43,293 nt of DNA from an uncultured Methanosarcinales archaeon (GTDB lineage Archaea; Nanobdellota; Nanobdellia; Woesearchaeales; GW2011-AR4). The stretch covers positions 1 through 43,293 of the forward strand of contig CAZIEE010000001.1 of NCBI GenBank assembly GCA_964538135.1. Reading direction: 5' to 3'. The notes beneath the pieces are model-generated. The model was not told where the DNA came from, did no database searches, and was given only the letters and a program-made list of their open reading frames with translations. Both the position numbers and the translations under genes were made by a program. Below are positions 27,307 to 43,099 of this stretch, one piece after another; position 1 is the first letter of the stretch, and every line of letters begins with the position of its first letter.

Positions 27307-28453
27307 CTTTAACCTCAACAATTCTGCTTTTAATTTTTCCTTTGTAAAATATAACATCCAGTGACTCATCTATTTTGAGATGGCTTGAATCTTTTATTAT
27401 TTTTTCTTCTTTCATAACAATACTATACCCTCTGCTTAAAACAGCTTTAGGATCCAGATTGTGTAACTTGGCTTTTAGAATTTCCAACTCTGCCTTTTTT
27501 TGTTTTATTTTATTTGATATAGCTTTGCTGAATCTCAACATTAATTCGTCAATCCTCTGTAAATAAGGCTCAATAATTCTTTTTGTTTTAATCAATAGTT
27601 TTTCATTCAGATGAGACAGATATATTAACAACTCATTTTTGTCAGGAACAGCAATCTCAGTAGCAGTTGATGGAGTTGATGCACGGATATCTGCAACAAA
27701 ATCTGCTATTGTAAAATCTGTTTCATGACCTATTGCAGATATTATAGGTATTCTTGAATTAAAGATTGCTCTTGCAACTACCTCCTCATTAAAGCACCAT
27801 AAATCCTCTAAAGAGCCTCCCCCTCTTGCCAGTATTATAATATCTATATCTTGTTTATTAAGTAATTGAATGGATTTAACTATTGATTCTGGAGCCATGG
27901 TACCCTGTACCAGACTTGGTGAGAACTTGATATTTATACTTGGAAATCTTCTTGTTAGATTAGTTATCAAATCCCTTATAACTGCACCAGTAGGAGAAGT
28001 AATAATTCCTATGGTTTTTGGGAATTTTGGGAGATTTCTTTTATGTTCTTGAGAGAATAATCCTTCTTTTTCAAGTTTTTCTTTTAATTGTAAAAATCTT
28101 TGATGAAGCGCTCCCAGTCCATCTGGTTGCATTTCTGATACAATTAATTGGTATTTGCCATATGGCTTATACACCCCTATTGAAGAAAGCAATAAAACTT
28201 TCATCCCCTGTTCAGGTTCAAAATTAAGAGATGAAGAATCATTAAACATTACACAACTTATCTGGCTTAATTCATCCTTTAATGTGAAGTATAAACGACC
28301 ATTAGAGTGCCTGGTCAAGTTAGATATTTCTCCTTTCACCCATATTTTCTTTAACTTCAAATCAGTCTCAAGCTTGTATTGTATATAATCATTTATTTTA
28401 CTTACAGTAAAGATTTCAGAATCTGTGTTTAGGTGTAATTGTTTGGATTTCAT
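27293..28453 (-). CDS. xseA: Exodeoxyribonuclease VII large subunit
   Basis: N-terminal OB-fold region (IWVKGEISNLTRHSNGRLYFTLKD) and AIGHETDFTIADFVADIRASTPS motif. ATG 28453 forms an ATGA overlap with the proB stop. Confidence 0.85.
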   Translation of the reverse strand: MKSKQLHLNTDSEIFTVSKINDYIQYKLETDLKLKKIWVKGEISNLTRHSNGRLYFTLKDELSQISCVMFNDSSSLNFEPEQGMKVLLLSSIGVYKPYGKYQLIVSEMQPDGLGALHQRFLQLKEKLEKEGLFSQEHKRNLPKFPKTIGIITSPTGAVIRDLITNLTRRFPSINIKFSPSLVQGTMAPESIVKSIQLLNKQDIDIIILARGGGSLEDLWCFNEEVVARAIFNSRIPIISAIGHETDFTIADFVADIRASTPSTATEIAVPDKNELLIYLSHLNEKLLIKTKRIIEPYLQRIDELMLRFSKAISNKIKQKKAELEILKAKLHNLDPKAVLSRGYSIVMKEEKIIKDSSHLKIDESLDVIFYKGKIKSRIVEVKDGKE

Positions 28454-29262
28454 CTTTCCATACACTTTGGGTAAAATATAGTACCAATATCCTCATTGTT
28501 GAGAACTTTAATCAAAACATTGCTTGCTCTGCCATTTGCAATTACAACTGTTATGCCTGAATTCGTTGCCAGCTTTGCTGCATCAATCTTTGTTTTTATT
28601 CCACCAATGCCGAGATGGTTTTTATCACGTAAATCAGCCAGGTCATCTATCTTAATTTTTTTATTATCATAAACTTCTTTTATCAAAAAAGGATTCTTAT
28701 TGTTTTGGTTTTTATTGAATAGCCCATCAACATTTGTTAGCATAACAAGTAAATCTGCATGCATTTTATTTGCAATCAAAGCTGAAAGTAAATCATTGTC
28801 TCCAAAAGAAGCTCCAATTTCATCAATGGAAATAGGGTCATTCTCATTTATTATTGGGATTACACCTAATTTTAGCAATCTGTTTATGCTATTACTTAGG
28901 TTAGTATATGTTTTAATGTTTGAGAAATCATCATAAGTTAAAAGTATTTGTGCAATTTTTATTTTAAATCTTCTAAATAATGAATGGTACGCAGCCATTA
29001 ATATACTTTGACCAACTGCAGCACATGACTGCTTTGTTATTACATCATTTTGTTTTATTCTTTTTTTAAGGTTCAATTCCTTTTTGCCAGCTCCTATTGC
29101 ACCACTTGTTATTATTATAATTTCCTTTTTTTTATTTTTTATATTTGCAATTTGAGCAACTAAATCAGACATAGCCTTTATGTCCAGTGTTCCAGTGCTG
29201 TCTGTTAATGTACTGGTACCTATTTTAACAACAATTCTATTTGCTTTTATATTTCTTGACAT
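28450..29262 (-). CDS. proB: Glutamate 5-kinase (no PUA domain)
   Basis: IVVKIGTSTLT N-terminus and amino-acid-kinase fold length. Confidence 0.85.
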   Translation of the reverse strand: MSRNIKANRIVVKIGTSTLTDSTGTLDIKAMSDLVAQIANIKNKKKEIIIITSGAIGAGKKELNLKKRIKQNDVITKQSCAAVGQSILMAAYHSLFRRFKIKIAQILLTYDDFSNIKTYTNLSNSINRLLKLGVIPIINENDPISIDEIGASFGDNDLLSALIANKMHADLLVMLTNVDGLFNKNQNNKNPFLIKEVYDNKKIKIDDLADLRDKNHLGIGGIKTKIDAAKLATNSGITVVIANGRASNVLIKVLNNEDIGTIFYPKCMER

Positions 29263-29271
29263 CTGATTATT

Positions 29272-30603
29272 TTATTTACTTATGAATTCATCTCGATTGA
29301 ATTTTGACCTTTTGACCTTATGGTGATGTGTAAATTTTTTTGCAGATTTTCCAATATAATCTTTTACCACCTGACCAGTTCCAACTAATTTATATTTATA
29401 GATTACAAGGCCTTCCAAACCAACAGGGCCTCTGCTATGGATTTTTGCAGTGCTTATACCAATTTCAGCGCCTTTTCCATATCTAAATCCATCTGCAAAT
29501 CTTGTTGATGCATTCCACATAACTGATGAAGAGTCTACTAACCTCATAAATGTAGTAGCGCTGTTTTTATTTTCTGTAATTATTGAATCTGTGTGTTTTG
29601 AGCTGTATTTATTGATGTGGTTTATTGCATCATTCAAGTTATCAACTACTTTTACAGAAAGTATAAGCTCATTATATTCAGTTGACCAATCTTTTTCAGA
29701 TGCTTTATTAATCCCCTTTATAATTTGCATTGTTTTATCCTCGCCTCTTATCTCAACCTTTGCTTCTTTAAATTTTTTTACAATCAAAGGAAGAAATTTT
29801 TTAGCAATGTCCTTATGCACCAGCATGGTTTCCATGGCATTGCATGCAGCAGGATACTGGCATTTTGCATCAAAGCAAATATCAATTGCTTTTTTTATGT
29901 CAGCAGATTTATCAACAAAAACATGGCATATTCCTTCTGAGTGGCCAAGCACAGGAATTTTTGTATGGGTTTGAACATATCCAACAAATTTATTACTCCC
30001 TCTTGGAATTATTAAGTTAACCCAATCATTTAATTTTAGCATCTGAGCTACATCCTCTCTTGTTTCTAATAATTGTACAGTTCCATCTGGTATTTTATTT
30101 TCCTTAGATGTTTCTGATATTAAATTAAATAAAAATTTGTTTGTGTTTTTTGCCTCTGAACCCCCTTTTAAGATTACTGCATTGCCAGATTTTATGCAAA
30201 GACTGCTAATTTGAGGAATTGCATCTGGTCTCGATTCGAATATTGCACCTATAACTCCAATAGGGCAAGTAACCTGATAAAGCATTAAGTCATCATCCAT
30301 CTCTACTTGGGATATGAGCTTACCAACAGGGTCTTCTAATTTGACAACCGTATTAATTCCAGTTACCATTTCATTTATTTTATCTTTGTCTATCTCTAAT
30401 CTTTTAATCAGAATCTGGCTTAGCTTTGATTTTTTTGCTTCTTCTAAATCTTTTTTGTTTGCAGCAATTATTGATTTTGAGTTATTTTTAATAGATTTAG
30501 CTATTTCAATCAATGCCTTATTTTTTACATTTACGGATAACACAGCCAGCTTTATTGATGCTTCTTTAGCTAATTGTGCAATTTTTAGTGTTTTGTTTTG
30601 CAT
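29272..30603 (-). CDS. proA: Gamma-glutamyl phosphate reductase with about 25-aa basic C-terminal tail
   Basis: ALDH-type core with AACNAMETMLVH. The tail ...KFTHHHKVKRSKFNRDEFISK is encoded by the element shared with ncRNA candidate 1. Confidence 0.85.
   Translation of the reverse strand: MQNKTLKIAQLAKEASIKLAVLSVNVKNKALIEIAKSIKNNSKSIIAANKKDLEEAKKSKLSQILIKRLEIDKDKINEMVTGINTVVKLEDPVGKLISQVEMDDDLMLYQVTCPIGVIGAIFESRPDAIPQISSLCIKSGNAVILKGGSEAKNTNKFLFNLISETSKENKIPDGTVQLLETREDVAQMLKLNDWVNLIIPRGSNKFVGYVQTHTKIPVLGHSEGICHVFVDKSADIKKAIDICFDAKCQYPAACNAMETMLVHKDIAKKFLPLIVKKFKEAKVEIRGEDKTMQIIKGINKASEKDWSTEYNELILSVKVVDNLNDAINHINKYSSKHTDSIITENKNSATTFMRLVDSSSVMWNASTRFADGFRYGKGAEIGISTAKIHSRGPVGLEGLVIYKYKLVGTGQVVKDYIGKSAKKFTHHHKVKRSKFNRDEFISK
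29282..29330. repeat. Copy of about 40-nt element shared with ncRNA candidate 1 (3466-3506)
   Basis: ATGAATTCA + 3 divergent nt + CGATTGAATTTTGACCT (17 nt exact) + TATG.TG. This copy carries an internal 8-nt tandem duplication (TTTGACCT). Confidence 0.75.
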
Positions 30604-31385
30604 AGTTCTTTGCTTCTTTTTACTGTAGCATTAATAGTTTTTTCAATTATAACCTTAATATCTGATTTATTTAAAATTTCTAACCCAGCCATTGTGGTGC
30701 CTTTTTTTGAGGTGATCATGTTTATTAATTCCTGTGAATTTAAATTAGTTTCTAGCATCAATTTTCCTGTGCCTAATGCAGTTTGAGATGCAAGCTTGAA
30801 AGCTGTATTTTTTGGCAATCCACTTTTAATTCCAGCTTCAGCAATTAAACCAATAAAGTAAGCAAAAAAAGCAGGACCTGAACCACTCACAGCAGTTACA
30901 GCATCCAACAAATCCTCCTTAATCAATATTGAGAGGCCTGCAACATTCAATATTTTAGATACTATTTTTATATCATCACTTGTTGCATATTTTCCAGCAG
31001 AAAATCCAGCTGCCATTTCTCCAACCAAGCAATTTATGTTTGGCATTACCCTAATTACTCTTTTATTTTTTAAAATAAATTCAATGTGTTTAATAGTTAC
31101 ACCAGCAGCTATAGAAACAACAAGTTGATTTTTTACAACATCTTTAACTTCATTCAAAACAGCATCAATGTCTTGAGGTTTAACACAAATAAAAACAATA
31201 TCAGAATCTTTTACAGCTTCTTTATTATCCTTTGTTGTTTTTATTGGAAATTGTTTTTTTATTTTTTTTAATGAATCTTCATTTTTATCGCTTGCAATTA
31301 TGGATTTTGCTAATTTATTCTTATAAATGCAGCTAATCAAAGCTGTTGACATTTTTCCTGTTCCGATAAAGCTAATCGATTTCAT
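30585..31385 (-). CDS. proC: Pyrroline-5-carboxylate reductase
   Basis: ISFIGTGKMSTALI Rossmann N-terminus and P5CR dimerisation-domain length. Confidence 0.85.
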   Translation of the reverse strand: MKSISFIGTGKMSTALISCIYKNKLAKSIIASDKNEDSLKKIKKQFPIKTTKDNKEAVKDSDIVFICVKPQDIDAVLNEVKDVVKNQLVVSIAAGVTIKHIEFILKNKRVIRVMPNINCLVGEMAAGFSAGKYATSDDIKIVSKILNVAGLSILIKEDLLDAVTAVSGSGPAFFAYFIGLIAEAGIKSGLPKNTAFKLASQTALGTGKLMLETNLNSQELINMITSKKGTTMAGLEILNKSDIKVIIEKTINATVKRSKELCKTKH

Positions 31386-31386
31386 T

Positions 31387-31671
31387 TTATAATTTAATCT
31401 CTTCTTTTAAATCTTCTATAGAATACCCTGATTTAAAACCACGATCTACAAGGTACTTTTCCATATCCCATATACTTATTTCTGCTTTAGCAGCAGCTTC
31501 CGAAATAGTTATTTTCCCTTCCATATATTTTTGAGCAACTTTTTTTGTAATTAAATCCTTGTATCTTATCACAACAAGTTTCTTAATTATAGTGCTTCTA
31601 TCAACAGACTCTTCTTTTTCTAGTTCCTTTACTTTTTTTAATGTATCATTGTTTAACTTTACTTTTATCAA
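31387..31671 (-). CDS. UPF0175-family antitoxin-like protein
   Basis: EGKITISEAAAKAEISIWDMEKYLVDRG helix-turn-helix pattern, paralogous to 32221-32538. Putative TTG start at 31671 with AGAGG 5 nt upstream. The track ORF continues in frame into a PIN remnant. Confidence 0.45.
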   Translation of the reverse strand: MIKVKLNNDTLKKVKELEKEESVDRSTIIKKLVVIRYKDLITKKVAQKYMEGKITISEAAAKAEISIWDMEKYLVDRGFKSGYSIEDLKEEIKL

Positions 31672-31794
31672 ATCTGCCTCTTTTTCCCAATATAAAGCTA
31701 TAGCTTCAGCCTCCCCTCTTTGTATATTGCATTCATTTGCTTTTTTAATAAGACTTTTTGATTTGTATTCGTTTTCATTTAAAGAATTTTGCAT
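31672..31794 (-). pseudogene. C-terminal remnant of a DUF3368-type PIN toxin, fused in frame to the antitoxin ORF
   Basis: ...RGEAEAIALYWEKEADLI aligns with GEAESIILFLQEKADFL of the intact PIN at 32531-33049. The catalytic N-terminal part is absent. The apparent ATG lies inside the 56-nt ATPase-gene fragment. Confidence 0.5.
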
Positions 31795-31827
31795 CTATAA
31801 AGAAATAAATATAACCGAAATAAAAAA
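31772..31827 (+). repeat. 56-nt fragment duplicated from the DUF4143 ATPase gene (33830-33885), 1 mismatch
   Basis: Direct comparison. Both copies encode FSFKEFCIYKEINITEIKK in the plus frame. Confidence 0.9.
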
Positions 31828-31848
31828 ATAAAGTTTAGTCTGATAATT

Positions 31849-32040
31849 TTATTTCAACCCATTAGCATGAACAGGAACAGGAACTGTAATCTTAATTGTT
31901 TTCTCTCCTGTATACCTTTCTAGTCTTACATGGGATCCTTTCTGTCTTGTAGCAATAAATCCTGCCCTCTTTAGTCGCTTAATAGCCTCAATATTAACTT
32001 TTCTAATGGTATATAAAGTATAAAATCTCAAAGTTTCCAT
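31849..32040 (-). CDS. hicA: HicA-like mRNA interferase toxin (orphan, short C-terminus)
   Basis: RQKGSHVRLER motif and IKRLKRAGF. No HicB partner is adjacent. Confidence 0.55.
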   Translation of the reverse strand: METLRFYTLYTIRKVNIEAIKRLKRAGFIATRQKGSHVRLERYTGEKTIKITVPVPVHANGLK

Positions 32041-32204
32041 GAGAAAAGCCACTATCTATAATAGTAAAGTATATCTTTATTTTTAGTTTTAAGGAATATT
32101 TGAGAACAACCAACTTCAAAGAAGAAATAAGTGGTTTAAAACTCCACCCTTTAGGGTGATATTTTTGGGTATACTACACCGAAAATGTCTTGAATTTCTA
32201 AGTG

Positions 32205-32238
32205 TCCTGAAAATTCGCTGTCAAAGGCGGATTTTCAT
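32205..32238. repeat. 34-nt hairpin element, copy 1 (TCCTGAAAATTCGCTGTCAAAGGCGGATTTTCAT)
   Basis: Imperfect 10-bp inverted repeat GAAAATTCGC/GCGGATTTTC overlapping the stop codon of the UPF0175 gene. It matches 42925-42958 at 31 of 34 positions. Confidence 0.8.
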
Positions 32239-32538
32239 GATATGTCTTACAGATTCGTTAAGATCTTCTAATGTTAGATTGCTTTCTATCCCCTTTTGTC
32301 TCATCAATTCAAAGAAATCCCCAATATACATATCTGCAAATTTTGCAGCTTGCTCAATTGAAAATTTGCCTTCTATATAAAGGTTCAAAGCCTTTTCTTT
32401 TTTGTCTTCTTGTATCCCTTTTTTTAGTATATCCCTAAAGGCTGTGGATTTATCCAAATTAAATATTCTGCTTACTTTCTTTATATATTCAAGACTATCA
32501 ATACTAAGTCTTGCTGTGACAGATACCAGCTTAGCCAT
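32221..32538 (-). CDS. UPF0175-family antitoxin-like protein
   Basis: EGKFSIEQAAKFADMYIGDFFELMRQKGI pattern. ATG 32538 is preceded by GGAGGT. 8-nt overlap with the PIN gene. Confidence 0.65.
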   Translation of the reverse strand: MAKLVSVTARLSIDSLEYIKKVSRIFNLDKSTAFRDILKKGIQEDKKEKALNLYIEGKFSIEQAAKFADMYIGDFFELMRQKGIESNLTLEDLNESVRHIMKIRL

Positions 32539-33049
32539 TTTTACCTCCAATATAATTCAATGTTTTGTTAATCAATTCATCTTTATACCTTCCATAAATA
32601 CCTAAATCCCTTATCATTTTATCTGCTTGATTTTTTGTGATAATGTGCATATCCAAGGCAGATATGACAAAAGTTAATGCTGTAATAAATGGAATTTTAT
32701 AAATTTTGCATACATTTATTGCTTTATGGTCATCGGTTGCTAAAAAATCTGCTTTTTCTTGCAAAAATAAAATGATAGATTCTGCTTCTCCTTCTGCCAA
32801 TCCAAATTCATTTACAATTTGGTTAAATTTTTTTTTCTCTTTTATATTTTTAACTTTAATCAAATTTTTATTGATTTTATTTTCTATTGAGTACGCATTT
32901 TCATATTTTGCATTTTTTCCTTTGATTACTGCTTCACTATAAACTTCCTGTGAGATTATAAAATTAAAATTTTTGAATAAATTATCTAGTAAAGCAATCT
33001 TCTCTAACAAAATCAGAGTTGATGCATCAGAGATGATTACTTTAGTCAT
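32531..33049 (-). CDS. PIN-domain protein (DUF3368-type toxin)
   Basis: VIISDASTLILLEKIALLDNL N-terminus and GEAESIIL...LATDDHKA core. Confidence 0.75.
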   Translation of the reverse strand: MTKVIISDASTLILLEKIALLDNLFKNFNFIISQEVYSEAVIKGKNAKYENAYSIENKINKNLIKVKNIKEKKKFNQIVNEFGLAEGEAESIILFLQEKADFLATDDHKAINVCKIYKIPFITALTFVISALDMHIITKNQADKMIRDLGIYGRYKDELINKTLNYIGGKNG

Positions 33050-33076
33050 TTATTACATCGTAATACAATGTTATAT

Positions 33077-33322
33077 TTAAAACTTTCTATGTTTTAGACG
33101 AACAAGAAATGATTTTAATCTTATACCTTTCAATACAACAATATTTTTAACTTCATCTAAAAAGAAGGTATCTGCTTTGCCGAAAAGTTCTATGCACATT
33201 TCATATAGTTTATTAAAGTCATTCAGCTCAAAATCTGCAAGCCCCTCATCTTCAAAATTAACATAGTAGAATTTATCGAAGAAATTTTCTATTATAGGTA
33301 AACATTTTAATAAAGTTTCCTG
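33077..33322 (-). pseudogene. Fragment of an AAA_14/DUF4143-family ATPase gene
   Basis: Open frame without a start codon: ...FYYVNFEDEGLADFELNDFNKLYEMCIELFGKADTFFLDEVKNIV... This parallels YGYINFDDESL...YELYGEIDYFVFDEIQNV of the intact gene. The Walker A region is missing. Confidence 0.55.
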
Positions 33323-33336
33323 TTATAATAGTAAAC

Positions 33337-33346
33337 TTTATATATA
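33337..33346 (+). promoter_or_regulatory. TATA box (TTTATATATA) for leaderless ATPase gene
   Basis: Centred about 27 nt upstream of ATG 33368. Confidence 0.45.
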
Positions 33347-33367
33347 TACTATCCTATCTGTTGATTT

Positions 33368-34645
33368 ATGAACACAGTTGAGATAAAAAGGATAGTACAA
33401 CAACAGGCAAAAGAAAGGGACTCCATACTAGCCAGCGAAATAATTGAGAGGGATATTCCAAATTTAATGAGCTTCCTAAAACACCCAAATATATTGGCTA
33501 TTTTAGGCATAAGAAGATGCGGAAAATCTGTTTTGTCATGGCTATTAATGAAAAAGGTGATATACGGCTACATTAATTTTGATGATGAATCCCTATATGG
33601 GACAAACGCGAGCGACCTTAATTCTATACTACAAGCATTTTATGAACTATATGGAGAAATAGATTACTTTGTTTTTGATGAGATACAGAATGTCACAGGA
33701 TGGGAGCTTTTCGCTAATAGATTGAGGCGTACAAAGAAAATTATCATCACAGGCAGCAATTCGCAGCTTTTATCAAGTGAATTGTCCACACATTTAACAG
33801 GAAGACACATTGATTTTCATCTGTTTCCATTTTCATTTAAAGAATTTTGCATCTATAAAGAAATAAATATAACAGAAATAAAAAAGTCTGAATTTACTAC
33901 AACTACATCTGCTTTAATGAGTAAATCTTTAGAGGAATATACTGAGTTAGGAGGCTTTCCTGAATCCTACAAAATAGGTACTCCAATTCTAAAGTCTATT
34001 GTAGGTGATATCATAACCAAGGATATCATAAAAAGGTATAGAGTTAAGAATGTCAAAGTGATAGAAAGTTTGGCTAAATACCTTATATCAAATTTTGGGA
34101 ATGAGATAAGCTTTAACAAACTGAAGAATATTTTTACAATTAAAAAGGTTGAAACTATAAAAAATTATGTTGGATATTTTGAAAATGCCTATTTAATTTT
34201 TGTTGTGGAAAGGTTTTCTCCAAAACTTAAACTACAGATAATAGCCCCAAAGAAAATATACTGCATAGATACTGGAATAATCAATGCCATATCTTTTGGC
34301 TTGAGCAAAAATATTGGAAAGATTTTTGAGAATATAGTCTACATCCAATTGTTAAGAACTAAAAATTATAGCACTGAACTATATTATTGGAAAGACCACC
34401 AGCAAAATGAGGTTGATTTTGTAGTTAAGCAAGGAACAAAAATTAAGGAGCTTATTCAGGTTTGTTATGATATTGATTCTGACAAAACAAAAGCAAGGGA
34501 AATTAGAGCGCTCCTTAAAGCAAGCGAAGAACTGGGCTGTAGAAATCTTTTTATTATTACACAAACTAAGGAAATGGAAGAAAAAATTGAAAATAAAAAA
34601 ATAAAGTTTATTCCTCTATGGAAATGGCTGATTGAAAGAGTTTAA
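33368..34645 (+). CDS. AAA_14 ATPase with DUF4143 C-terminal domain
   Basis: Walker A GIRRCGKS, Walker B FVFDEIQ and about 425 aa, typical of this archaeal/bacterial family. Confidence 0.8.
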   Translation: MNTVEIKRIVQQQAKERDSILASEIIERDIPNLMSFLKHPNILAILGIRRCGKSVLSWLLMKKVIYGYINFDDESLYGTNASDLNSILQAFYELYGEIDYFVFDEIQNVTGWELFANRLRRTKKIIITGSNSQLLSSELSTHLTGRHIDFHLFPFSFKEFCIYKEINITEIKKSEFTTTTSALMSKSLEEYTELGGFPESYKIGTPILKSIVGDIITKDIIKRYRVKNVKVIESLAKYLISNFGNEISFNKLKNIFTIKKVETIKNYVGYFENAYLIFVVERFSPKLKLQIIAPKKIYCIDTGIINAISFGLSKNIGKIFENIVYIQLLRTKNYSTELYYWKDHQQNEVDFVVKQGTKIKELIQVCYDIDSDKTKAREIRALLKASEELGCRNLFIITQTKEMEEKIENKKIKFIPLWKWLIERV

Positions 34646-34696: not shown

Positions 34697-37399
34697 TTAA
34701 CCGCCAGATTGACCAGGTTTGAATATATCTTTTGTCAAGCTATTTGTCCATCTACCTAAATTTGGACCAATATCATAGCCTTCTGTTTTATCAGCAATAG
34801 CTCGCAATAATTGCAATGCACCAACTTTGCCCTCTGCATGACCAAAATATTTAGCTTCTTCAATTACTCTATACAATATGTACATTGCTGCTCCTCTGGT
34901 TGTTATAGTTGGATTTATTGACATTTCCGTATTATCTTGAAGGTCATAGTAATAAACTTTCCCTATATGTTTATCCACTCTTGATGCCCTAACATCAAAA
35001 GCAGGATTTAAATGATTTGGCCTCATAGTCATCTTAATATAATTAGGCAAATTTGAAGGGGCAAGATCTGATGAAGTTGCCAAATCATTCAATTTTATTT
35101 CTACTTTAGCTTGCGTTACCTTTTTATCCTTCCAGTAGCCTTCTTCCCTTTCCTCTCTAGAAACCGTTCGTACATGTTTTAAATATGGAGAATATGTTTC
35201 GCTCATGATGCGATCCATAACTGTAATAGCATTTTTATGATACCTTCCATCCCTCATATCATCTCTGTAAGGATCATATGCAACATACATCCAAGTAACA
35301 ATATCCAAAGGATCACATAACCCAATAAATTCCTCTGGCACTCTTCTAATACTAGGAACGCTTCTTCTTTTTGGAGACTTTGGATTAGGAACCTTTGGCA
35401 TATAAATATCACTCAAGACAACACCCTTTTCTAATACAGTTCCATCAAATAATGTGATTCCATCACCTACTTCAAGAGGCCATCCGTTTTCATCTAATCC
35501 TATACCTTGTTCCCAATCCCATTTTTCGAAGTTTGGTTTTCTATAGTTATTGTACATTTCATATTTTTCCTTTTCTATTTCAGCCTGCTTTTTTTTCCTT
35601 ATACTTTCCCTAATTTGAGAAATTTCATTTTCAATGACAAATTTTCTTTGCAATGGATTTATCATGCGATTCAGAATATTTTGTTTTATATTGCTAAACT
35701 TAGAGAAATATAAAATCCATAAGTAAGCCGCTATCAATTTTTTTAATAAAATAGCCATGTCTTTATCTAATTTAATTTCTTTAAATACGTTAAGGACGTT
35801 TTCAAAAGCTTCTAAAATTCTTGGATCTTTTGATTGATCTGTTTTTAGAATTTGTCCGATATTACTGGTTTCAAGCTTAACAATTTTTATGAGTTCTTCG
35901 ATTTTTTCCTTTGAAACATCTTTCAATTTTTTATTCATACTTTCTACTATCCCTTTTTTTAAATTTTCTATGTTTGTTTTAATATTATCAATTAAACCCA
36001 ATGTTTCTTTTTCACCTGATTTTTTAAGCTTAGTCGTATCTATTTTAGGATTCTCAGTTTTCATTTGCTCGGTAATCCTTTTGTAGAGTTCAAGTTTGAA
36101 TTTATTATCTAAAAAATTATTTATTCTATTTTCAAAACTTTGATCAAATATTCTTCCAGCCCTTTTATCTAATTCAAATAATCTTTTATTTAATGGATCC
36201 ATGATTTCATTTATCTCTTTTAGTTCAGTTCTTAGAGTCAATAGTTGTGATATTTTTTCATTAAGATTAATCTTGTTAAACTCTATTTGGGCATCTTCAA
36301 GAAGTCTTAGATATGGTTGCTTACTTGGATCAAAAAAAACCATTATTTCAACATCTTGAGAACTTAGAGTGACTTTTTGCAAAAGTTCAACCTCAATATT
36401 TACAATTTGTACTATATCAGTAACATTTCTGGTTTTTGCATTGAATTCTTCGTCAAATTTTTCTTCATCAATCAACTTTGGCATATCTGCCTTTATTTTA
36501 TATTTTGCAAATTGTTTTATTATATGGTAAGTGTGTGTAAAAAAAATCTTTTCTTGGGTCAACTTAAATTTTTCCAATGATCCACCTTTTTTCATAATAT
36601 TATTTATCTTATCAGTTATGATCGTCCTGACACCACTACTTGAAATCAGTGCATCTCTATGATTTAATTCAAAATTTTTTATTTTGGTTTTCAAATGGAT
36701 TATTGCCTTTTCAAAATAACTCTTGATAAATTCAATGTTTTTAGCAAGGTTTTCTAGCTTTTGTTTGTCAGTAGTTCTAGATTCATGCCAGACCCGGCAT
36801 TTTTCTATTATTTCATTTACCTCTGATATCAACGTATTCCAGTATACCTCATTTTCATAACCAAAAAAAACCACACTGTAAGTAGTTCCAAATTCGTCAT
36901 AACCCCTTCCATCAGTATAATAAATTGGCTCTTTATCTGGTCTGTGAAATACTCCTTTAATTTTATCATCACCTTTTTTGATTGTAATGTTATCCCTTAC
37001 TATTTTAGTACCCTTTTCGGCAAACCTTCCTTCCCTCTCTATTGCATCAAGTTCCGTGTAAGGTCCCAAACTTGTTTTAATAATTTCTGCACCTTCCTCA
37101 TTCTCTCCATCTTTGGAATAGTATTCAATCATCTCATTCATTATTTTTTCAACACTTTCCTTCCCTTCCCAATCAACTTCTGTCTCTACCATTTTTTTGT
37201 TCATTGCACCTAAGTGTTCTAAGTTTATTTCTTCCTGCAAATCAGTAAATGTTGGTATTACTGTTGGAGCTTCTCCTTTGGGAACAGTATAATGATAATC
37301 AAGTCCTTTCTTTCTGAAAATTCTAACATAAAAATTTCTTAACTTTCCAAAACCTTTATTTATAATAGTTTCTTCTTTTCTTGATGGTTCTTCAGCCAT
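34697..37399 (-). CDS. Large (900 aa) protein of unknown function, gene 5 of the novel operon
   Basis: ATG 37399 with GAGGT 8 nt upstream; 8-nt overlap with gene 4. Long K/E/N-rich helical middle. C-terminal 280 aa is rich in W/Y/R/P. No NTPase, nuclease or protease motif recognised. Confidence 0.75.
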   Translation of the reverse strand: MAEEPSRKEETIINKGFGKLRNFYVRIFRKKGLDYHYTVPKGEAPTVIPTFTDLQEEINLEHLGAMNKKMVETEVDWEGKESVEKIMNEMIEYYSKDGENEEGAEIIKTSLGPYTELDAIEREGRFAEKGTKIVRDNITIKKGDDKIKGVFHRPDKEPIYYTDGRGYDEFGTTYSVVFFGYENEVYWNTLISEVNEIIEKCRVWHESRTTDKQKLENLAKNIEFIKSYFEKAIIHLKTKIKNFELNHRDALISSSGVRTIITDKINNIMKKGGSLEKFKLTQEKIFFTHTYHIIKQFAKYKIKADMPKLIDEEKFDEEFNAKTRNVTDIVQIVNIEVELLQKVTLSSQDVEIMVFFDPSKQPYLRLLEDAQIEFNKINLNEKISQLLTLRTELKEINEIMDPLNKRLFELDKRAGRIFDQSFENRINNFLDNKFKLELYKRITEQMKTENPKIDTTKLKKSGEKETLGLIDNIKTNIENLKKGIVESMNKKLKDVSKEKIEELIKIVKLETSNIGQILKTDQSKDPRILEAFENVLNVFKEIKLDKDMAILLKKLIAAYLWILYFSKFSNIKQNILNRMINPLQRKFVIENEISQIRESIRKKKQAEIEKEKYEMYNNYRKPNFEKWDWEQGIGLDENGWPLEVGDGITLFDGTVLEKGVVLSDIYMPKVPNPKSPKRRSVPSIRRVPEEFIGLCDPLDIVTWMYVAYDPYRDDMRDGRYHKNAITVMDRIMSETYSPYLKHVRTVSREEREEGYWKDKKVTQAKVEIKLNDLATSSDLAPSNLPNYIKMTMRPNHLNPAFDVRASRVDKHIGKVYYYDLQDNTEMSINPTITTRGAAMYILYRVIEEAKYFGHAEGKVGALQLLRAIADKTEGYDIGPNLGRWTNSLTKDIFKPGQSGG

Positions 37400-38819
37400 A
37401 GTAATCAACCTCGAATTTTCTTATTAAATCAATTTTTTTTCTGAAAAAAGTAGGCGCCCCGATTGAAATCAAAATTTTAATCAATCTTTTATACCTATCC
37501 ATACATTTCCAGACAAGCAATTTGATTTCTGTAATGTCCAAGTTTTTTGATTTTTCTTCTTTTATTTTTGATCTTTCGAAAATATCGTTAATCATTTTTA
37601 ATATACCCTCATATTTTTTCAATACAAATGCAAATAATACTATGGAACCAAAATTTTTATAATTAGAAGGATCTACTGATTTACCAAGTTTTGATCCATA
37701 TTCACTGTAATCAATAAGTTTTTGGTAATTACTTGTAAGTTCCTGTGCCTCTTTTTCTAATTCAATCTCTTCCAAAACACTGGTTATAGAAGTCACTATG
37801 GGGACATACAGTAATTCCAGATTATTTTTTATTCTTTTGAATTCCTTCTTTTTTTCATCAAATAATTTTTTCAATTCCATTTCTATTGTTTCAAAAAAAT
37901 CAATAATTACTTTTTTTAAGCCTTCATTTAAGGTGATCACCCTTCCCCTAAAAATTGATAATAAGCTCTTCATAGCTTCTTCTATAGCTTTACTTCTTCT
38001 TACAAAAAATTGACCTGAAATATCTTCCTTTTCCTTTTGCAATACTTCTATCCAGGAAAAAGGGTTTTCTCCAATAGTGATATTTTTTAATAATAATTCG
38101 TAAGTTTCCTGACTCCAGTAATCATTATTGAATTCTGCAGCGATTGACTTTATATTCTCAAAAAATTTTTTTGTAGATACATTTTTTTCCCATCTGTTGG
38201 TGTTTTTGTCAATATCCATGTATAAATAATCTATCCAATACTGCAACCTGCTGCTTATACCTGGCATATTAATAAGATAGTTAATTTCATGATTTTGGTC
38301 TAAAGCTATCTTAAGATGCCTGTCTCCAAACCTATCTAGGGCAACAAAAGCGTTTGTATTTTCAAGAAAAAAACCTGTAAAGTAATCCTTAAATCTTTTA
38401 ATAAAAAATGTGATATCATTGCCCCTTTGCATATACACAGACCATTTATCCAAATCAGTAATGCACGCATTTAATGCTTCAATCTCTTTATCTACTCTTA
38501 ACATCAATCGAAGTATCTTAATTAATCTTTCCATTATCTTGTTGGAATCTAATTTTCCTAACATTTTCATGAACTCTGCATAAAGTATGTTAATATCACC
38601 CTCTCTTTTTAAAAATTTTTTTTTGATGTCCTCTAAACTTAAAATACCTTTATTGTACATGAAAAAATCATTGACCTTATCAAGCTCTCCATTGAAGTAA
38701 TATAGCAATTCCAGTGCATCCTTCAGGAACCTTGTATTTTCATTACCCAGGAAACCTGGATTACTAACTCCCTTGAGATTTGTAATTTTCTCTTCATCAG
38801 TTAAATTATTTATTTTCAT
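37392..38819 (-). CDS. Helical protein of unknown function (475 aa), gene 4 of the novel operon
   Basis: ATG 38819 lies 1 nt after the gene 3 stop. Alternative ATG 38864 or GTG 38870 would overlap by 44-50 nt. No recognisable motif. Confidence 0.7.
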   Translation of the reverse strand: MKINNLTDEEKITNLKGVSNPGFLGNENTRFLKDALELLYYFNGELDKVNDFFMYNKGILSLEDIKKKFLKREGDINILYAEFMKMLGKLDSNKIMERLIKILRLMLRVDKEIEALNACITDLDKWSVYMQRGNDITFFIKRFKDYFTGFFLENTNAFVALDRFGDRHLKIALDQNHEINYLINMPGISSRLQYWIDYLYMDIDKNTNRWEKNVSTKKFFENIKSIAAEFNNDYWSQETYELLLKNITIGENPFSWIEVLQKEKEDISGQFFVRRSKAIEEAMKSLLSIFRGRVITLNEGLKKVIIDFFETIEMELKKLFDEKKKEFKRIKNNLELLYVPIVTSITSVLEEIELEKEAQELTSNYQKLIDYSEYGSKLGKSVDPSNYKNFGSIVLFAFVLKKYEGILKMINDIFERSKIKEEKSKNLDITEIKLLVWKCMDRYKRLIKILISIGAPTFFRKKIDLIRKFEVDYYG

Positions 38820-38820
38820 T

Positions 38821-40491
38821 TCAACTTGTTTTCTTTTTTTCTGGCTTTTTTTCCAATTGTTCATAACCACTTTTGTAATATTCTTCTAAATACATTTTTG
38901 CTAATTCATTCTCTTTAGTACTCTTTTCTGCAAAATTATTTATAAACATCCATAATCCAACCATACTCACTGTGGGTAAAGGATTTATAGGCTTAACTTG
39001 TAAAAGACTATCATGTGTTCCTTCATGATATTTCTTTTTTGCCCAGTAAAAGAACTTTCCCCCATTTTTTAGCGCTTCTCTGTCAAAAGCAATATCCTCA
39101 TAATCAAGCAATTTTTTAAATTTTGCATTATCAAGATTATAATAACCCTCCAAAATTTCGTAATCAGTGATTTTTTTGCTAAAACGATGGTATGTGCCAA
39201 AGCTAAGATCATTAATATACCATACCCAGTCTTTCATCGCAAAGTCTAATATATGACTGAATCTCGGAACTATTACACTTGAATCAGGGTAATATAAATA
39301 CTCTATGTCTTCTTTTTTCCATCTCCTTATTGACGTATCGATTCTGCCTTCAACTTGAATTTGATTTATATCAGTAATAGAGTAACCGTATAAATTGACT
39401 TCTTCAAGGTAATTTGTACCTGGCTCTAAGTTCACTACATTTCCAGTGAAAGTCCTGTCCAATTTCACTTTTGTCCAATCTATTTCTCTAAAAAATCCCT
39501 CATCTCCTAGCCCTCCTTCTTCAATTTTATAGATATCAGGCTTTGCATCTTTTCTGGCAAATCCATAACCCCTTTGATAACTTCCATACATATTATACAT
39601 ATCAAGAAACTTTAATCTTATATTCCTAGTTAAATTATAAGTCCTATACCTTTTCACATATGCCAGGAATTTAACATAATAAGATTTAATTTGTATGGAG
39701 TACTCATTATTGAGTTGGGTTTCATAAGTAGTAAAGGCGTCACTAACTCTAGTGCTTACTGCTTGTTCAGTATCCTTAACTGTTAAATCCTTTTCCAAAT
39801 ATGATTTTAATTCCTCCATCAACTTATAAACAAAATAATCCTGTCTTGCCCAACCTATAGCAGGCCTTTTATTTTCTGGATTTATTTCAATTTCCCATCT
39901 ACCTTCACCTTCAGGATCCTTTTCAATTCTTGCACCTTCAACATAGCTTCGCATAATTTTGGCTAAGAATTTTGCAGTCATTATATTATTAGTTAGTCTC
40001 TTTTCTTTTTTGCTGAGGTCTTCATACATTTTCTTAATTCCTCCTGTTTTAGTATCACTAAGTCCCTCATATTTAGCACGAAATATTTCATGCCTTAACA
40101 TATAATTCATCAAAACATAGAGTTCAATCCTCATATTTTGCAAGCTAAATGGGAGTTCTCCTGGCAATGTTGGTGTTCTTAATAGCCCATATCTGCTCAG
40201 GAATTTTGCTAAATACTCTCTACCCCTAATTTTTCTGTAAAGTATTTCTAGTAATCTTGTAAATCCCTCCTTTTTCATTGCTTCTAGTTTTTCCCCCCCA
40301 CTAATCCCAAAAACTACCCCACCACCTAGCACAACTATCACTAAAATTCCTAAAAGTATCTTCCAACTAACACCTACCAATCCAATTAATCCAGGATTAT
40401 CTGGATATACAAGGAAGTGAAAAGCTGCTGTCACTAAAAATGCAACTATAATTGCACCTATCCAGTCAATCAAACCATTAGATTCGGTCAT
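38821..40491 (-). CDS. Membrane-anchored protein (two N-terminal TM helices + about 480-aa soluble domain), gene 3 of the novel operon
   Basis: IDWIGAIIVAFLVTAAFHFLVY and WKILLGILVIVVLGGGVVFGI helices. ATGA overlap with gene 2. Confidence 0.75.
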   Translation of the reverse strand: MTESNGLIDWIGAIIVAFLVTAAFHFLVYPDNPGLIGLVGVSWKILLGILVIVVLGGGVVFGISGGEKLEAMKKEGFTRLLEILYRKIRGREYLAKFLSRYGLLRTPTLPGELPFSLQNMRIELYVLMNYMLRHEIFRAKYEGLSDTKTGGIKKMYEDLSKKEKRLTNNIMTAKFLAKIMRSYVEGARIEKDPEGEGRWEIEINPENKRPAIGWARQDYFVYKLMEELKSYLEKDLTVKDTEQAVSTRVSDAFTTYETQLNNEYSIQIKSYYVKFLAYVKRYRTYNLTRNIRLKFLDMYNMYGSYQRGYGFARKDAKPDIYKIEEGGLGDEGFFREIDWTKVKLDRTFTGNVVNLEPGTNYLEEVNLYGYSITDINQIQVEGRIDTSIRRWKKEDIEYLYYPDSSVIVPRFSHILDFAMKDWVWYINDLSFGTYHRFSKKITDYEILEGYYNLDNAKFKKLLDYEDIAFDREALKNGGKFFYWAKKKYHEGTHDSLLQVKPINPLPTVSMVGLWMFINNFAEKSTKENELAKMYLEEYYKSGYEQLEKKPEKKKTS

Positions 40492-41669
40492 TGTGGATTG
40501 CCTCCTGACTGTTCTGCTTGAGGAGTTGCTGAATCTCCTGTGCCTTCTGGTGATGATGTAGGTGATTGTACTTGTGATGGTATAGGTGCTGGTGATGGTG
40601 CAGATTCTTGACTTGATTCAGCAGGTGCACTTGATGTAGTTTTAGTTCTTATTTTCTTTATTCCTTTCAAAGCAATTATCAAAATACCGAAAAATACTAC
40701 TATTTCGATACCTGCTTTAAACATTGTTCCACCAGTTAAGCCACCTTTATCAGTTAATGAATCACAATCAATAGGACTAAGCTTACAAGCTATCTTTCCT
40801 AACAATCCTCTATATTCTGGAGTAGCAGTAGTTAATGCAGCTGAGAACCATGAAACCAGAACAATTGCTAAAATCCATCTTCCGCTTTTGTTAGTTACTG
40901 TGCCTTCAAGAGCTTGGGCAAACATTATCACTAATAAAATTTCTCCCATTTGTATTACAGCTCCAAGTTTAGCCCCTTGACTAGCCATGCTTATAGACAA
41001 AACTAAAGCTAACAAGTAATTTAGTGTATTTTTACCACCTACCCCTCCCTTTAACAAAAAGCCATTAAAGAAAAAGGACAGTAATACAAATGAACCAATA
41101 AAAACAAATAGACCACCTTGTGGATTTAATATCCCATTTTGCTTATTAAACAAGAGCCCAATTAATTGTTTAACAGCAGGCTCTGACCATATCCATTTAT
41201 CTCCTATGTTAACTGCCCATACTGAAGAAAATATGAATATCAATAAACCAGCTCCGATTTGTCCTGGCTTTGATTGTAATTTTACCCCAATGGGTGACAT
41301 AACCAGTATAAAGTACAAAACAGATGAAATAATTAAAGAGTTAACTAATTTATGCCTACTGAAAAACTGAGCAAAAGGCCCAACATTCCATATCAAACCA
41401 GTTTGTCCATAAAGGAAAGCAATCAAAAATGATGCAACTAAGATTATAATCCAAATAACTGTCTTTTCTTTGCCAGGTTTGTCAGGTAGTAATAATGATT
41501 GTAACAAAAATAGGATTATTCCAATTACTGCTGTATTAATTAACAAGAACCATATTTTTGTTCCTTGGAAAGGAATAGCATGGGCTAATGGCAAGCTGAT
41601 TATAGCTACCAAAATCACTCCAATAGCCCAAATAAATTTATTTTTTGTAATTGTCATATTTCTTGTCAT
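40488..41669 (-). CDS. Polytopic membrane protein (about 10 TM) with S/P/Q-rich C-terminal tail, gene 2 of the novel operon
   Basis: Ten hydrophobic segments read from the translation. Tail is TTSSAPAESSQESAPSPAPIPSQVQSPTSSPEGTGDSATPQAEQSGGNPQ. ATGA overlap with gene 1. Confidence 0.75.
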   Translation of the reverse strand: MTRNMTITKNKFIWAIGVILVAIISLPLAHAIPFQGTKIWFLLINTAVIGIILFLLQSLLLPDKPGKEKTVIWIIILVASFLIAFLYGQTGLIWNVGPFAQFFSRHKLVNSLIISSVLYFILVMSPIGVKLQSKPGQIGAGLLIFIFSSVWAVNIGDKWIWSEPAVKQLIGLLFNKQNGILNPQGGLFVFIGSFVLLSFFFNGFLLKGGVGGKNTLNYLLALVLSISMASQGAKLGAVIQMGEILLVIMFAQALEGTVTNKSGRWILAIVLVSWFSAALTTATPEYRGLLGKIACKLSPIDCDSLTDKGGLTGGTMFKAGIEIVVFFGILIIALKGIKKIRTKTTSSAPAESSQESAPSPAPIPSQVQSPTSSPEGTGDSATPQAEQSGGNPQ

Positions 41670-42850
41670 AGTTCTTTTTCAATCTCATCCAAAGTTTTGT
41701 CATCAGGAATATCATCAAACTCATAGCCTTGAGAGGTTAACTTAATCCAAAGCCTAAGCACATTATCACTAAAGTAGAATCTGTTGTCTTTCTTGTAAAT
41801 AATATCAACATCCATTAACCTTTCAAGAATACTTTTTGTTACAGGTGCGCTTCTATAGATGTGTTTTGCTATCTCGCTTAGCCTGAGTTCGTCTTTTGCA
41901 ACAACTTTTAGAATTGTTTTTAGTAGAGTCTGGCCTCTTGCATGATTGTAGTAATAATTAAAGCATTCATTACAGTAATCATAGATTGCGTTTTTCTTTT
42001 TGAGCAACTCAATCAAAAATGTTCGCTTTAAGCTCACATTTTTGTCAACAGATAATTTTTTTAGAAGTAGTAATGTAATGTATAAATTTCCATTTGTCAA
42101 GGAAAAAACCTCTCCAGAAATTTTTTCATTGTCCACTTCTTTCTTTCCAAAGAAACTTTCAACTAAATTAAAGATTTCTTTTTTGTCAAAATTTTTTATT
42201 TCATAGCAATCAAAATTTTTTAATCTGGATATGCACTCTTTAATTGCAGAACTTGTTACAACATAACAAACATTTTGTGAATTAAAATTGATAATAGATA
42301 AAATATCTTTAATCTGAGAAAAATTATTCAAATCAAAAATATTATCAAAATTATCCAATATTACCAAAAACTTTTTGTTGTTTTCTTTAGCTAATATTTG
42401 AATAAAATCAAAAGCAGTTTGAACAAGAAGTTTTTGCTCTGGTTTTATCTTTAATAACTCATTATCAATAGTTTTTATTAAAGAAAAAGAATCTTTACTT
42501 AATTGACTCTCAAATTTCAGTAAACTATTCAAATGCAAAAACTCTTTGTATTCAGTTATTGGTCTATTCAAAAAATTAAAGAGAATGTTCCCAATAAATT
42601 CAATTGAAAAGTTTTCTGGGTTTAGGCTTATCTTTTCTAAATCAATATAAACTGGAACAAGCTCTTTAATATCCTTGATATTTTTAATGTGTTCTTTAAC
42701 AATAAAGGTTTTTCCTGATTTTCTAGAGCCAAGCAATGCAATGTTTTTCACATCACCTTTAATAAAAGAATTTGTATTTCTCTTTAATATATCAAGATAG
42801 TACTCTCTATCTACAGATTCCAATTTTCTCTCAGACAATGTCAAACCCAT
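41666..42850 (-). CDS. Arch_ATPase-like (STAND-type) P-loop NTPase with C-terminal winged-helix-like domain, gene 1 of the novel operon
   Basis: Walker A LLGSRKSGKT and Walker B FLVILDNFDN. C-terminal LRLSEIAKHIYRSAPVTKSILERLMDVDIIYKKDNRFYF resembles the DUF234/wHTH tails of archaeal ATPases. Confidence 0.7.
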   Translation of the reverse strand: MGLTLSERKLESVDREYYLDILKRNTNSFIKGDVKNIALLGSRKSGKTFIVKEHIKNIKDIKELVPVYIDLEKISLNPENFSIEFIGNILFNFLNRPITEYKEFLHLNSLLKFESQLSKDSFSLIKTIDNELLKIKPEQKLLVQTAFDFIQILAKENNKKFLVILDNFDNIFDLNNFSQIKDILSIINFNSQNVCYVVTSSAIKECISRLKNFDCYEIKNFDKKEIFNLVESFFGKKEVDNEKISGEVFSLTNGNLYITLLLLKKLSVDKNVSLKRTFLIELLKKKNAIYDYCNECFNYYYNHARGQTLLKTILKVVAKDELRLSEIAKHIYRSAPVTKSILERLMDVDIIYKKDNRFYFSDNVLRLWIKLTSQGYEFDDIPDDKTLDEIEKEL

Positions 42851-42924
42851 CTATTCCCTACTATCTGCCAATTATTCCTATACCATTTGGAATATATACT
42901 GTTAATATAAATATCTTTCCATTA

Positions 42925-42958
42925 TCCTGAAAATCCGCTGTCAAATGTGGATTTTCAT
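42925..42958. repeat. 34-nt hairpin element, copy 2 (TCCTGAAAATCCGCTGTCAAATGTGGATTTTCAT)
   Basis: 31/34 identical to 32205-32238 in the same orientation, 10,720 bp away. It lies just upstream of the operon promoter region. Confidence 0.8.
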
Positions 42959-43099
42959 AACTGTTATACTTTTCGGTATATTTTTTTAAAAATAATATAC
43001 TCAAAATAAAATATTCCATTTTGTATAGAAGATATATTTAAAGTTTTGCATAAAATATTTATTCCTATTAGAATATATACTTTTTGGTATAAAAAATAA

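Follow-up and report, generated by a model that had tools for sequence, protein, structure and literature searches.

Zorya, which joins a ZorAB membrane module to large cytosolic ZorC/D proteins, and Kiwa are membrane-anchored multi-gene defence systems. A second point of comparison is the archaeal ATPases of the ATPase_2 (PF01637), AAA_14 and AAA_16 families that carry a C-terminal winged helix; to our knowledge the function of PF01637 proteins is largely unknown, and a literature search found little on the family. We analysed a stretch of 43,293 nucleotides (nt) from a woesearchaeal genome (contig CAZIEE010000001.1; hereafter the window), one end of which encodes a minus-strand operon of five genes, g1 to g5, comprising an ATPase, a membrane protein and three largely soluble proteins. 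Few DPANN archaea are as abundant as Woesearchaeota or as little understood, and we know of no part of their lineage-specific cell biology that has a molecular handle. A literature search found no description of the operon. An earlier note, made from the sequence alone, had read it as an abortive-infection-like defence system. We favour, with about an even chance of its being right, a different reading: the operon would encode a vertically inherited, Woesearchaeota/Nanobdellota-specific, membrane-anchored cytoplasmic complex with native autoregulation, part of the cell's own machinery and not a mobile defence module.

The order g1, g2+g3, g4, g5 was found again at no fewer than 13 further loci, which come from Woesearchaeota/Nanoarchaeota of groundwater, lakes and the sea (L004, L005, L006, L008, L011, L014, L015/16, L017, L018, L019, L020, L021 and L022). 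Every sufficiently long locus held the succession of ATPase, membrane plus soluble protein, helical protein and g5, including the most distant members, L017 and L018, and the marine TARA contig L020. Co-occurrence of the five genes in this order across DPANN genomes had been named by the earlier note as a test that could refute it, and the genes did co-occur. L004, from a Woesearchaeota groundwater metagenome-assembled genome (MAG), was the sole locus obtained from a genome scan with the clade-specific patterns F[EQ]KWDWE and HYTVPKG[EQ]; nine further metagenome loci were gathered with g1 as the anchor, and contig look-ups supplied further contexts. L004 has the whole set, with identities of 66% for g1, 42% for g2, 26–34% for g3 and 29% for the g5 C-terminus. 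A Logan contig, L001, carries a g5 relative at 61% identity with g3 and g4 upstream. The chromosomal place was conserved as well, in marine and freshwater genomes alike. L020 and L022 read g1-g2g3-g4-g5-proC-proA-proB-PAC2-...-DUF192-...-Xer-like integrase; in L011, L015/16 and L017 g5 is followed by proC or by the phosphoenolpyruvate carboxylase gene (PEPC) and proCAB, and in L004 and L014 by PAC2-DUF192-integrase. Upstream of the operon, Peptidase_M17/TrxR or Peripla_BP_2 recur. The window has proC-proA-proB at 28450-31385 and PEPC at 16896-18368. Between the window and L015, identity was 75% for PEPC, 69% for ProC, 73% for ProA, 62% for ProB and 64% for g1, against 33% for g2, 27% for g3 and 30% for g5, with g4 undetectable. 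By this measure g1 is under housekeeping-like constraint.

An ORF (open reading frame) listing confirmed five consecutive minus-strand genes: g1 (41666-42850; 394 amino acids (aa), a P-loop ATPase with a C-terminal winged helix), g2 (40488-41669; 393 aa, a polytopic membrane protein), g3 (38821-40491; 556 aa, two transmembrane (TM) helices and a large cytoplasmic domain), g4 (37392-38819; 475 aa from its ATG, all-helical, with an alternative open GTG start at 38870) and g5 (34697-37399; 900 aa from the ATG at 37399, the long form of a cytoplasmic protein). The two ATGA overlaps reported before are exact, and so are the spacer of 1 nt and the overlap of 8 nt. The g1/g2 overlap (ATGA), the g3/g4 junction (TGA-a-ATG, a spacer of 1 nt) and the g4/g5 junction (cGAGGTtgattactATGGCTGA, an overlap of 8 nt with GAGGT 9 nt upstream) were read directly from the sequence, and the g2/g3 overlap (ATGA) was deduced from ORF coordinates. 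The g1/g2 ATGA is kept in 13/13 loci, and in 9/15 loci the g5 ATG lies within the terminal g4 codons, typically as T-ATG-GC inside Tyr-Gly. With its start embedded in this way, g5 shares bases in two frames with g4: the conserved C-terminal YYG(R) of g4 and the N-terminal Met-Ala of g5 are written in the same nucleotides. Given an order that recurs in at least 13 independent loci and an invariant g1/g2 ATGA, the translationally coupled operon is real. At the g4/g5 junction the terminal codons of g4 are Tyr/Asn-Gly; the T-ATG-GC embedding stands at 37392-37399 in the window and has equivalents in L001, L004, L005, L006, L014, L017 and L021.

Both motifs by which g1 had been called a P-loop NTPase are present. 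The Walker A motif GSRKSGKT (residues 41-48, 42707-42730, minus strand) has K44, G46 and K47 invariant and T48 nearly so among 12 orthologs; in the Walker B motif LVILDNFD (residues 162-169, 42344-42367, minus strand) D166 and N167 are kept in 11 of the 12. An Asn thus follows the Walker B Asp in place of the usual catalytic Glu, which may mean slow hydrolysis or switch-like behaviour. The winged-helix region (about residues 306-368, 41747-41935, minus strand) appeared in the ortholog alignment as the nearly invariant GQTLLKTILKV..ELRLSEIA..IYRSAPVTKS..ERL, with weak matches to HTH_45/TrmB/Cmi2 and CasR-type winged helix-turn-helix (wHTH) profiles. Against Pfam ATPase_2 (PF01637) g1 scored 29.4 bits, under the gathering threshold of 33.2, and it matched AAA_14 and TrmB/HTH weakly too. 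The 12 orthologs matched AAA_14 in 11 cases, ATPase_2 in 8 (E ≤ 0.01) and HTH_45 in 5, and the L017 ortholog has a precomputed PF01637 match. Judged by these profiles, g1 is best described as a divergent relative of PF01637 that falls short of clear membership. No gene of the operon evolves more slowly: ortholog identities are 57-68%, and 36% for the distant L017. The earlier description of a STAND-like ATPase with a winged-helix tail stood as far as the P-loop ATPase and the winged helix go; the STAND part did not, similarity being only weakly of the ATPase_2/AAA_14 kind. The NACHT profile gave 19.1 bits (cut-off 26.7), with no significant match to any STAND NTPase profile, and the chain stops at residue 394, past the wHTH, with no TPR, WD40 or LRR sensor-repeat match in Pfam scans of the window protein and its orthologs. 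A profile search of PDB sequences detected no relative of g1 (CED-4 gave E 0.73), Pfam, profile and PDB-sequence searches found no similarity to known partition proteins, and Pfam scans gave no Orc1/Cdc6-type match.

The membrane protein g2 shares 42-47% identity with the first ~290 aa of fused g2g3 proteins, and g3 aligns with their C-terminal half (residues ~300-900). In about 30 of 40 clusters g2 and g3 are fused as one protein of ~780-1000 aa (781-1002 aa in L004, L005, L006, L008, L011, L014, L018, L020 and L022), and the window has the split version. Such fusion elsewhere argues, by the Rosetta-stone principle, that g2 and g3 act together. The low-complexity Ser/Pro/Gln tail of g2 (residues ~342-393, 40491-40646, minus strand) has no counterpart in the fused proteins and is specific to the split form in the window's lineage. 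There are about 9-10 hydrophobic segments in g2, with an alternating positive-inside pattern. Across 32 fused proteins the Lys+Arg counts alternate cleanly between loops, and the 36 residues past the last TM segment hold 9.3 Lys+Arg. This pattern places the large g3 domain on the cytoplasmic side, a predicted location like that of g1, g4 and g5, which have no TM segment. Within the membrane domain N39, Q51 and N104 are intramembrane and invariant, and E240 and S276 are intramembrane and more than 90% conserved; a P-x-A-x-A-Q motif after the first hydrophobic segment is invariant, and external loops with GILNP, W88 and W156 are conserved. No internal repeat was found when the two TM halves were compared (hhalign probability 1%). 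An AlphaFold2 (AF2) model of the fused homolog P0058 had a predicted local distance difference test score (pLDDT) of 80-95 across its soluble portion and of 65-77 across the membrane portion; Foldseek matched this model, membrane part of moderate confidence included, to nothing in PDB (best E 0.29, TM-score 0.06).

The C-terminal domains of g3 and g5 proved to be paralogous. The g3 domain (about residues 365-540, 38872-39399, minus strand) and that of g5 (residues 620-900, 34700-35542, minus strand) aligned over 155 columns with an hhalign probability of 99.2% (E 9.7e-20) and have in common the motifs iRR, DxRxGxYHxxS, AFDxxA, GRxYY and NPxPxxSxxG. BLASTP between g3 and g5 was not significant and the paralogy emerged only with profiles; tblastn cross-matches between g3 and g5 ranged from E 3.5e-4 to 5.8e-8. 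The middle of g3, the whole of g4 and the N-terminal half of g5 gave no further internal paralogies (probabilities ≤3%). In family alignments the g5 C-terminal domain has invariant columns, and its motifs are GLDENGxPLEV, DxYRDDxRDGRYH, NPAFD, GRxYYY, TTRG and DIGPN. The N-terminal α/β and helical-bundle domain of g5 (residues 1-300, 36500-37399, minus strand) corresponds in alignments to the N-terminal half of the short forms (560-620 aa), from which the Lys/Glu-rich helical insertion (about residues 300-619, 35543-36499, minus strand) is absent. Members of the g5 family span ~500-1150 aa (P0011, P0013, P0115, P0144, P0164 and others), and Lys/Glu-rich helical insertions of 200-500 aa occur at several g5 sites that differ between lineages and also in one g3 (L004). 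Stalks of such variable length in g5 point to an element that acts as a spacer or ruler. The proteins that carry N-terminal extensions are long-form g5 with helical insertions; the idea that they are g4-g5 fusions was rejected. A short-form g5 homolog, P0007, was modelled with AF2 from a 49-sequence alignment at pLDDT 87.3 and a predicted TM-score of 0.82; Foldseek found no match for it in PDB (best E 0.2, TM-score ~0.07) or in BFVD (best E 0.16). The fastest-evolving gene of the operon, g4, is 47% identical to its L001 ortholog; against L004 it was undetectable by BLASTP and was recognised by its position, which is kept in all loci. Its C-terminal end is YYG, and no family or PDB match was found.

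Searches of Pfam, NCBIfam, PADLOC (PADLOC-DB v2) and PHROGs returned no match for g2–g5, PHROGs giving only noise at E > 0.003; PADLOC reported for g1 only a CasR wHTH-type match (E 1.3e-4). Family profiles of g1, g2g3, g4 and g5 met helical-bundle noise only among PDB sequences, and Foldseek with the two models found nothing at E < 0.1 in PDB and BFVD. These profile searches and structure predictions bear out the earlier statement that g2–g5 are unrecognisable, with homology to no known family or structure in the resources searched. There were no relatives in IMG/VR (2.9 M contigs), among INPHARED phages or among PLSDB plasmids. Word-indexed searches returned 57 g5-type and 40 g2g3-type clusters, none with a Pfam domain, and all named clusters came from Woesearchaeota/Nanoarchaeota MAGs except one partial protein labelled Aenigmatarchaeota. 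The g5 family search used an alignment without the Lys/Glu-rich middle, as the full-length g5 query gave only itself and one relative, probably because the word index was overwhelmed by that middle. When 1.84 billion representatives were searched exhaustively with HMMER, 264 g5 matches passed E ≤ 1e-3 and 170 passed E ≤ 1e-30; those distant members that have names, few in number, were again Nanoarchaeota. The predicted complex is, on this showing, built from previously undescribed protein families.

Comparison of the regions upstream of g1 revealed a palindrome of 18 nt, TATAYNCCAAWNGGTATA, that is specific to the operon and is placed between g1 and a TATA-like box. In the window this site, called C (TATATTCCAAATGGTATA, 42879-42896, minus strand), lies 28 nt upstream of the g1 ATG and is the sole exact match; in 11 loci there is one exact palindrome per locus, in each case a short way upstream of g1. 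When as many as 2 mismatches were allowed, the 43-kb window contained 3 matches, all in 42879-43093, against 0.25 expected (none of 100 shuffles reached 3), and only ~4 stray matches were found in the remaining ~300 kb with mismatches allowed. The TATA-like box GATATTTATATT (42904-42916, minus strand), read from the sequence, is 7 nt upstream of site C and is a likely promoter; the arrangement TTTTTATATT-N(5-7)-site C also occurs in L014, L015, L019 and L022. Distal related sites of the window (42965-43093, minus strand), namely TATACCGAAAAGTATA at 42965-42980, TATATTCTAATAGGAATA at 43060-43077 and TTTATACCAAAAAGTATA at 43076-43093, correspond to sites A and B of a three-site array that at least nine loci carry on the same strand: A (TATATACCAATTAGTATA), 80-82 nt, B (TATATACCAAAAAGTATA), 53-54 nt, C. 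A conserved, operon-specific palindromic site between TATA-like box and start codon is what an autoregulated operator would present, and because the non-coding array is conserved between genomes that share 30% identity in g5, we predict that it is a protein-binding operator array. Candidates for the palindrome binder are the near-invariant wHTH of g1 and a divergently encoded 47-aa ribbon-helix-helix (RHH)-like protein.

In most loci a divergent pair of genes is found upstream of g1, encoding the RHH-like protein (46-65 aa; MKHKLSVTLDE..GKFRNKSHVVEFAVKKLLEEE, 63-83% identity) and a Gly/Ala-rich protein of ~270-315 aa without a Pfam family (L005:583-1455(-), L008:8593-9468(-), L009:2367-4237(-), L011:1077-1973(-), L014:7594-8563(-), L015:1606-3996(-) and L019:2061-3141(-)). 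The pair is sometimes tandem-duplicated, and the intergenic region with the palindrome array is common to it and g1. The window contig ends 440 nt upstream of g1, before the position of the divergent pair. A resemblance of the palindrome core TTCCAAATGG to archaeal origin recognition box (ORB) elements was set aside, as the spacing differs and g1 lacks an Orc1/Cdc6-type match.

These comparisons suggest how the complex might work. We propose that g2 is a functional polytopic membrane module and not a mere anchor, perhaps a channel or an ion- or substrate-coupled element, because of its invariant intramembrane Asn/Gln and its >90%-conserved Glu. It would be linked to the cytoplasmic domain of g3, covalently in most genomes and non-covalently in the window. 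Through the common C-terminal domain g3 would recruit its soluble paralog g5, forming a pseudo-symmetric heterodimer, with g4 as a helical adaptor produced in a fixed ratio with g5. ATP would be bound by g1 and probably hydrolysed slowly, given the Asp-Asn of its Walker B, and g1 or the divergent RHH protein would bind the palindromes overlapping the operon promoter, giving autoregulated expression. The g3-g5 pairing, the membrane activity of g2, the palindrome binder and the cellular role are predictions from sequence and models. Candidate roles would be envelope or membrane organisation, or a host contact site. Of the alternatives in the earlier note, the one that agrees most closely with the evidence is an episymbiotic archaeon's membrane apparatus, whose part in host contact stays putative.

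Several points weigh against this reading. Genes g2–g5 evolve much faster than the housekeeping enzymes, as arms-race genes also do; the RHH protein is as good a candidate binder of the palindrome as g1; and the membrane part of the g2g3 model is only moderately confident. We infer the near-universal presence of the operon in Woesearchaeota from synteny and cluster counts only, and, Foldseek having covered PDB and BFVD, a remote structural relative could exist among uncharacterised cellular proteins. Rapid evolution (27-33% identity for g2–g5, set against 62-75% for the enzymes) would also suit chromosomally fixed defence or abortive infection, in which g1 senses infection and activates a membrane-disrupting g2–g5 effector. 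So would the combination of a P-loop ATPase with a membrane protein, the variable Lys/Glu-rich insertions of g5 and the toxin-antitoxin (TA) modules that repeatedly adjoin g5 (window, L001, L017, L019). We nevertheless regard defence as unlikely. The location is not the variable or mobile one of a defence island: the proCAB, PAC2, Peptidase_M17 and TrxR flanks are conserved in divergent genomes, and the place among housekeeping genes is the same across marine and groundwater lineages. The TA neighbours vary in type, with HEPN/NT at the downstream junction of g5 in L017 and PIN/MazE in L019, and are absent in L011, L020 and L022. Since the TA and DUF4143 neighbours differ or are missing in other genomes, they are best explained as secondary, lineage-specific insertions at a tolerant junction, and these insertions together with the operon's fixed place argue against both a defence island and a provirus. 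PADLOC was blank for g2–g5, its one g1 match being of the CasR wHTH type; the rate at which g1 evolves is that of housekeeping genes and not of typical sensors; plasmid, phage and viral-contig collections (PLSDB, INPHARED, IMG/VR) yielded no copies; and the conserved promoter/operator array suggests stable native regulation. The TA neighbours made the core operon resemble a defence island, and this calls for caution. The earlier note's alternative of a cryptic provirus remnant, which we took to include mobile elements and to encode structural proteins, is close to refuted and has the slimmest probability of all. Large unrecognisable proteins and a Xer-like integrase ~8-10 kb downstream in L004, L014, L020 and L022 might point that way, but the integrase belongs to the conserved synteny and so is probably chromosomal XerA, divergent genomes have identical housekeeping flanks, and PHROGs, BFVD, IMG/VR, INPHARED and PLSDB were all blank.

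Other cellular functions were also weighed. An uptake or translocation system, in which g2 forms a conduit, gated or powered by cytoplasmic g3, g4 and g5, for what a symbiont of reduced genome has to import (lipids, nucleotides, DNA, peptides), would account for the polar residues inside TM helices, the conserved external loops and the large cytoplasmic domains fused to the membrane domain. On general grounds, DPANN biology predicts lineage-specific import machinery. It is an improbable explanation all the same: hhalign and Foldseek against PDB revealed neither an internal repeat nor similarity to any transporter fold, there is no transport-type ATPase (the Walker B of g1 is degenerate and its other domain is of a DNA-binding type), and confidence in the membrane model is moderate. 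Another candidate is a chromosome-to-membrane tether or segregation device, where g1 or the RHH protein binds the array as a centromere-like locus and docks it on the membrane complex. The layout is formally analogous to ParR/parC or SegB-type systems, with 3-4 palindromes at fixed spacing adjoining an ATPase-wHTH gene, g1 translationally coupled to a membrane protein in 13/13 loci, and a conserved RHH gene divergently adjacent. Yet site C, between TATA-like box and start codon, is in the classic operator position, there is no ParA, actin or tubulin-type motor, g1 resembles no known partition protein, and cooperative repression of two divergent promoters explains the array equally well; we hold a tether to be very doubtful. 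A bolder extension of the membrane-complex reading, which we put forward as an unlikely possibility, is a new archaeal membrane machine, present across Woesearchaeota and probably ancestral to them, in which the ATPase-wHTH recognises the palindrome array and couples the locus or its expression to a membrane complex of new fold, as a centromere-like tether or as the core of an episymbiont contact or exchange apparatus.

For the membrane-anchored cytoplasmic complex that we favour, the analysis defines a complete module of four or five genes and three or four new protein families, one of them with a confident predicted structure unmatched in PDB. Two components are linked by fusion, a paralogous domain pair predicts a specific interaction, and the cis-regulatory array is precisely defined. 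Should the complex prove to be envelope or division machinery or an apparatus of host contact, the order would have its first described machine of that kind.

The selfish/TA-type patch of the window (31387-34645) sits between g5 and proC. It comprises two copies of UPF0175 (31387-31794 and 32221-32550), HicA (31849-32052), a DUF3368-type PIN gene (32531-33049, assigned from its L001 ortholog), an intact AAA_14+DUF4143 ATPase (33368-34645, plus strand) and two DUF4143 fragments (31757-31828 and 33137-33265). The PIN, UPF0175, HicA and intact DUF4143 genes had been recognised before; of the three decayed DUF4143 copies then counted, two are detectable. ORFs of 172 aa downstream of g5 in L005, L006 and L008 were tried as counterparts of the window's PIN gene and rejected by tblastn; where 172-aa genes are annotated (L015, L016, L019) they are MarR-type. 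A helical, family-less protein of ~333 aa just before PAC2 (L004:7839-8843, L020:11602-12603) is a possible further conserved neighbour. Elsewhere in the window, a giant ORF of 2719 aa (4750-12909, plus strand) has weak Big_13 (Ig-like), bacterial TSP3-repeat and DUF4215 matches and probably encodes a surface or adhesin protein of very great size, such as have been reported from DPANN symbionts. The archaeal-type PEPC (plus strand) stands alongside bacterial-type genes, namely a fused IspD/IspF of the methylerythritol phosphate pathway (20782-21960, plus strand) and the exonuclease VII large subunit (27293-28465, minus strand). A ribosomal protein L11 ORF (22546-23346, plus strand) has 266 aa, of which two L11 domains cover residues 8-137 only; it has either a C-terminal extension of ~130 aa or a stop codon read through or mis-assembled. 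The window contains no tRNA or Rfam element.

By exclusion, the operon would lie outside every known kind of system tested. Like Zorya and Kiwa, it combines a membrane module and large cytoplasmic proteins in one operon; it differs in having no PADLOC sequence or profile similarity and no structural similarity in PDB, in lacking nuclease and helicase domains, and in a position that is conserved and not island-like. With STAND NTPases (NACHT/NB-ARC/AP-ATPase) g1 shares a P-loop NTPase followed by a helical or winged-helix module and a marginal similarity to NACHT (19 bits) and CED-4 (E 0.73), all scores being sub-threshold. In contrast to them it has only 394 aa and no C-terminal sensor repeats, and its slow evolution within a fixed operon argues against a diversifying sensor. 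Autoregulated archaeal operons whose palindromic operators overlap the TATA/TSS region (repression of the TrmB, Lrp or MDR1 type, for example) and RHH-regulated operons offer a likeness in regulation: an 18-bp palindrome directly downstream of a TATA-like box, extra upstream sites at ~5 helical turns, a first gene encoding a wHTH protein and a divergent gene encoding an RHH protein. The present operon differs from them in that TATAYNCCAAWNGGTATA and the A-B-C array match no described operator that we could find, and in that g1, the candidate regulator, also carries an ATPase domain and has its translation coupled to that of a membrane protein. Archaeal ATPase_2 (PF01637), AAA_14 and AAA_16 ATPases with a C-terminal winged helix resemble g1 in their Walker A and B motifs, in the order of ATPase then wHTH, and in the weak but consistent profile matches of g1 and most of its orthologs. 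From these ATPases g1 is set apart by a score below the Pfam threshold and by a Walker B of Asp-Asn and not Asp-Glu. With its orthologs it makes up a close-knit subfamily of 57-68% identity, in which translational coupling to a membrane protein is constant.

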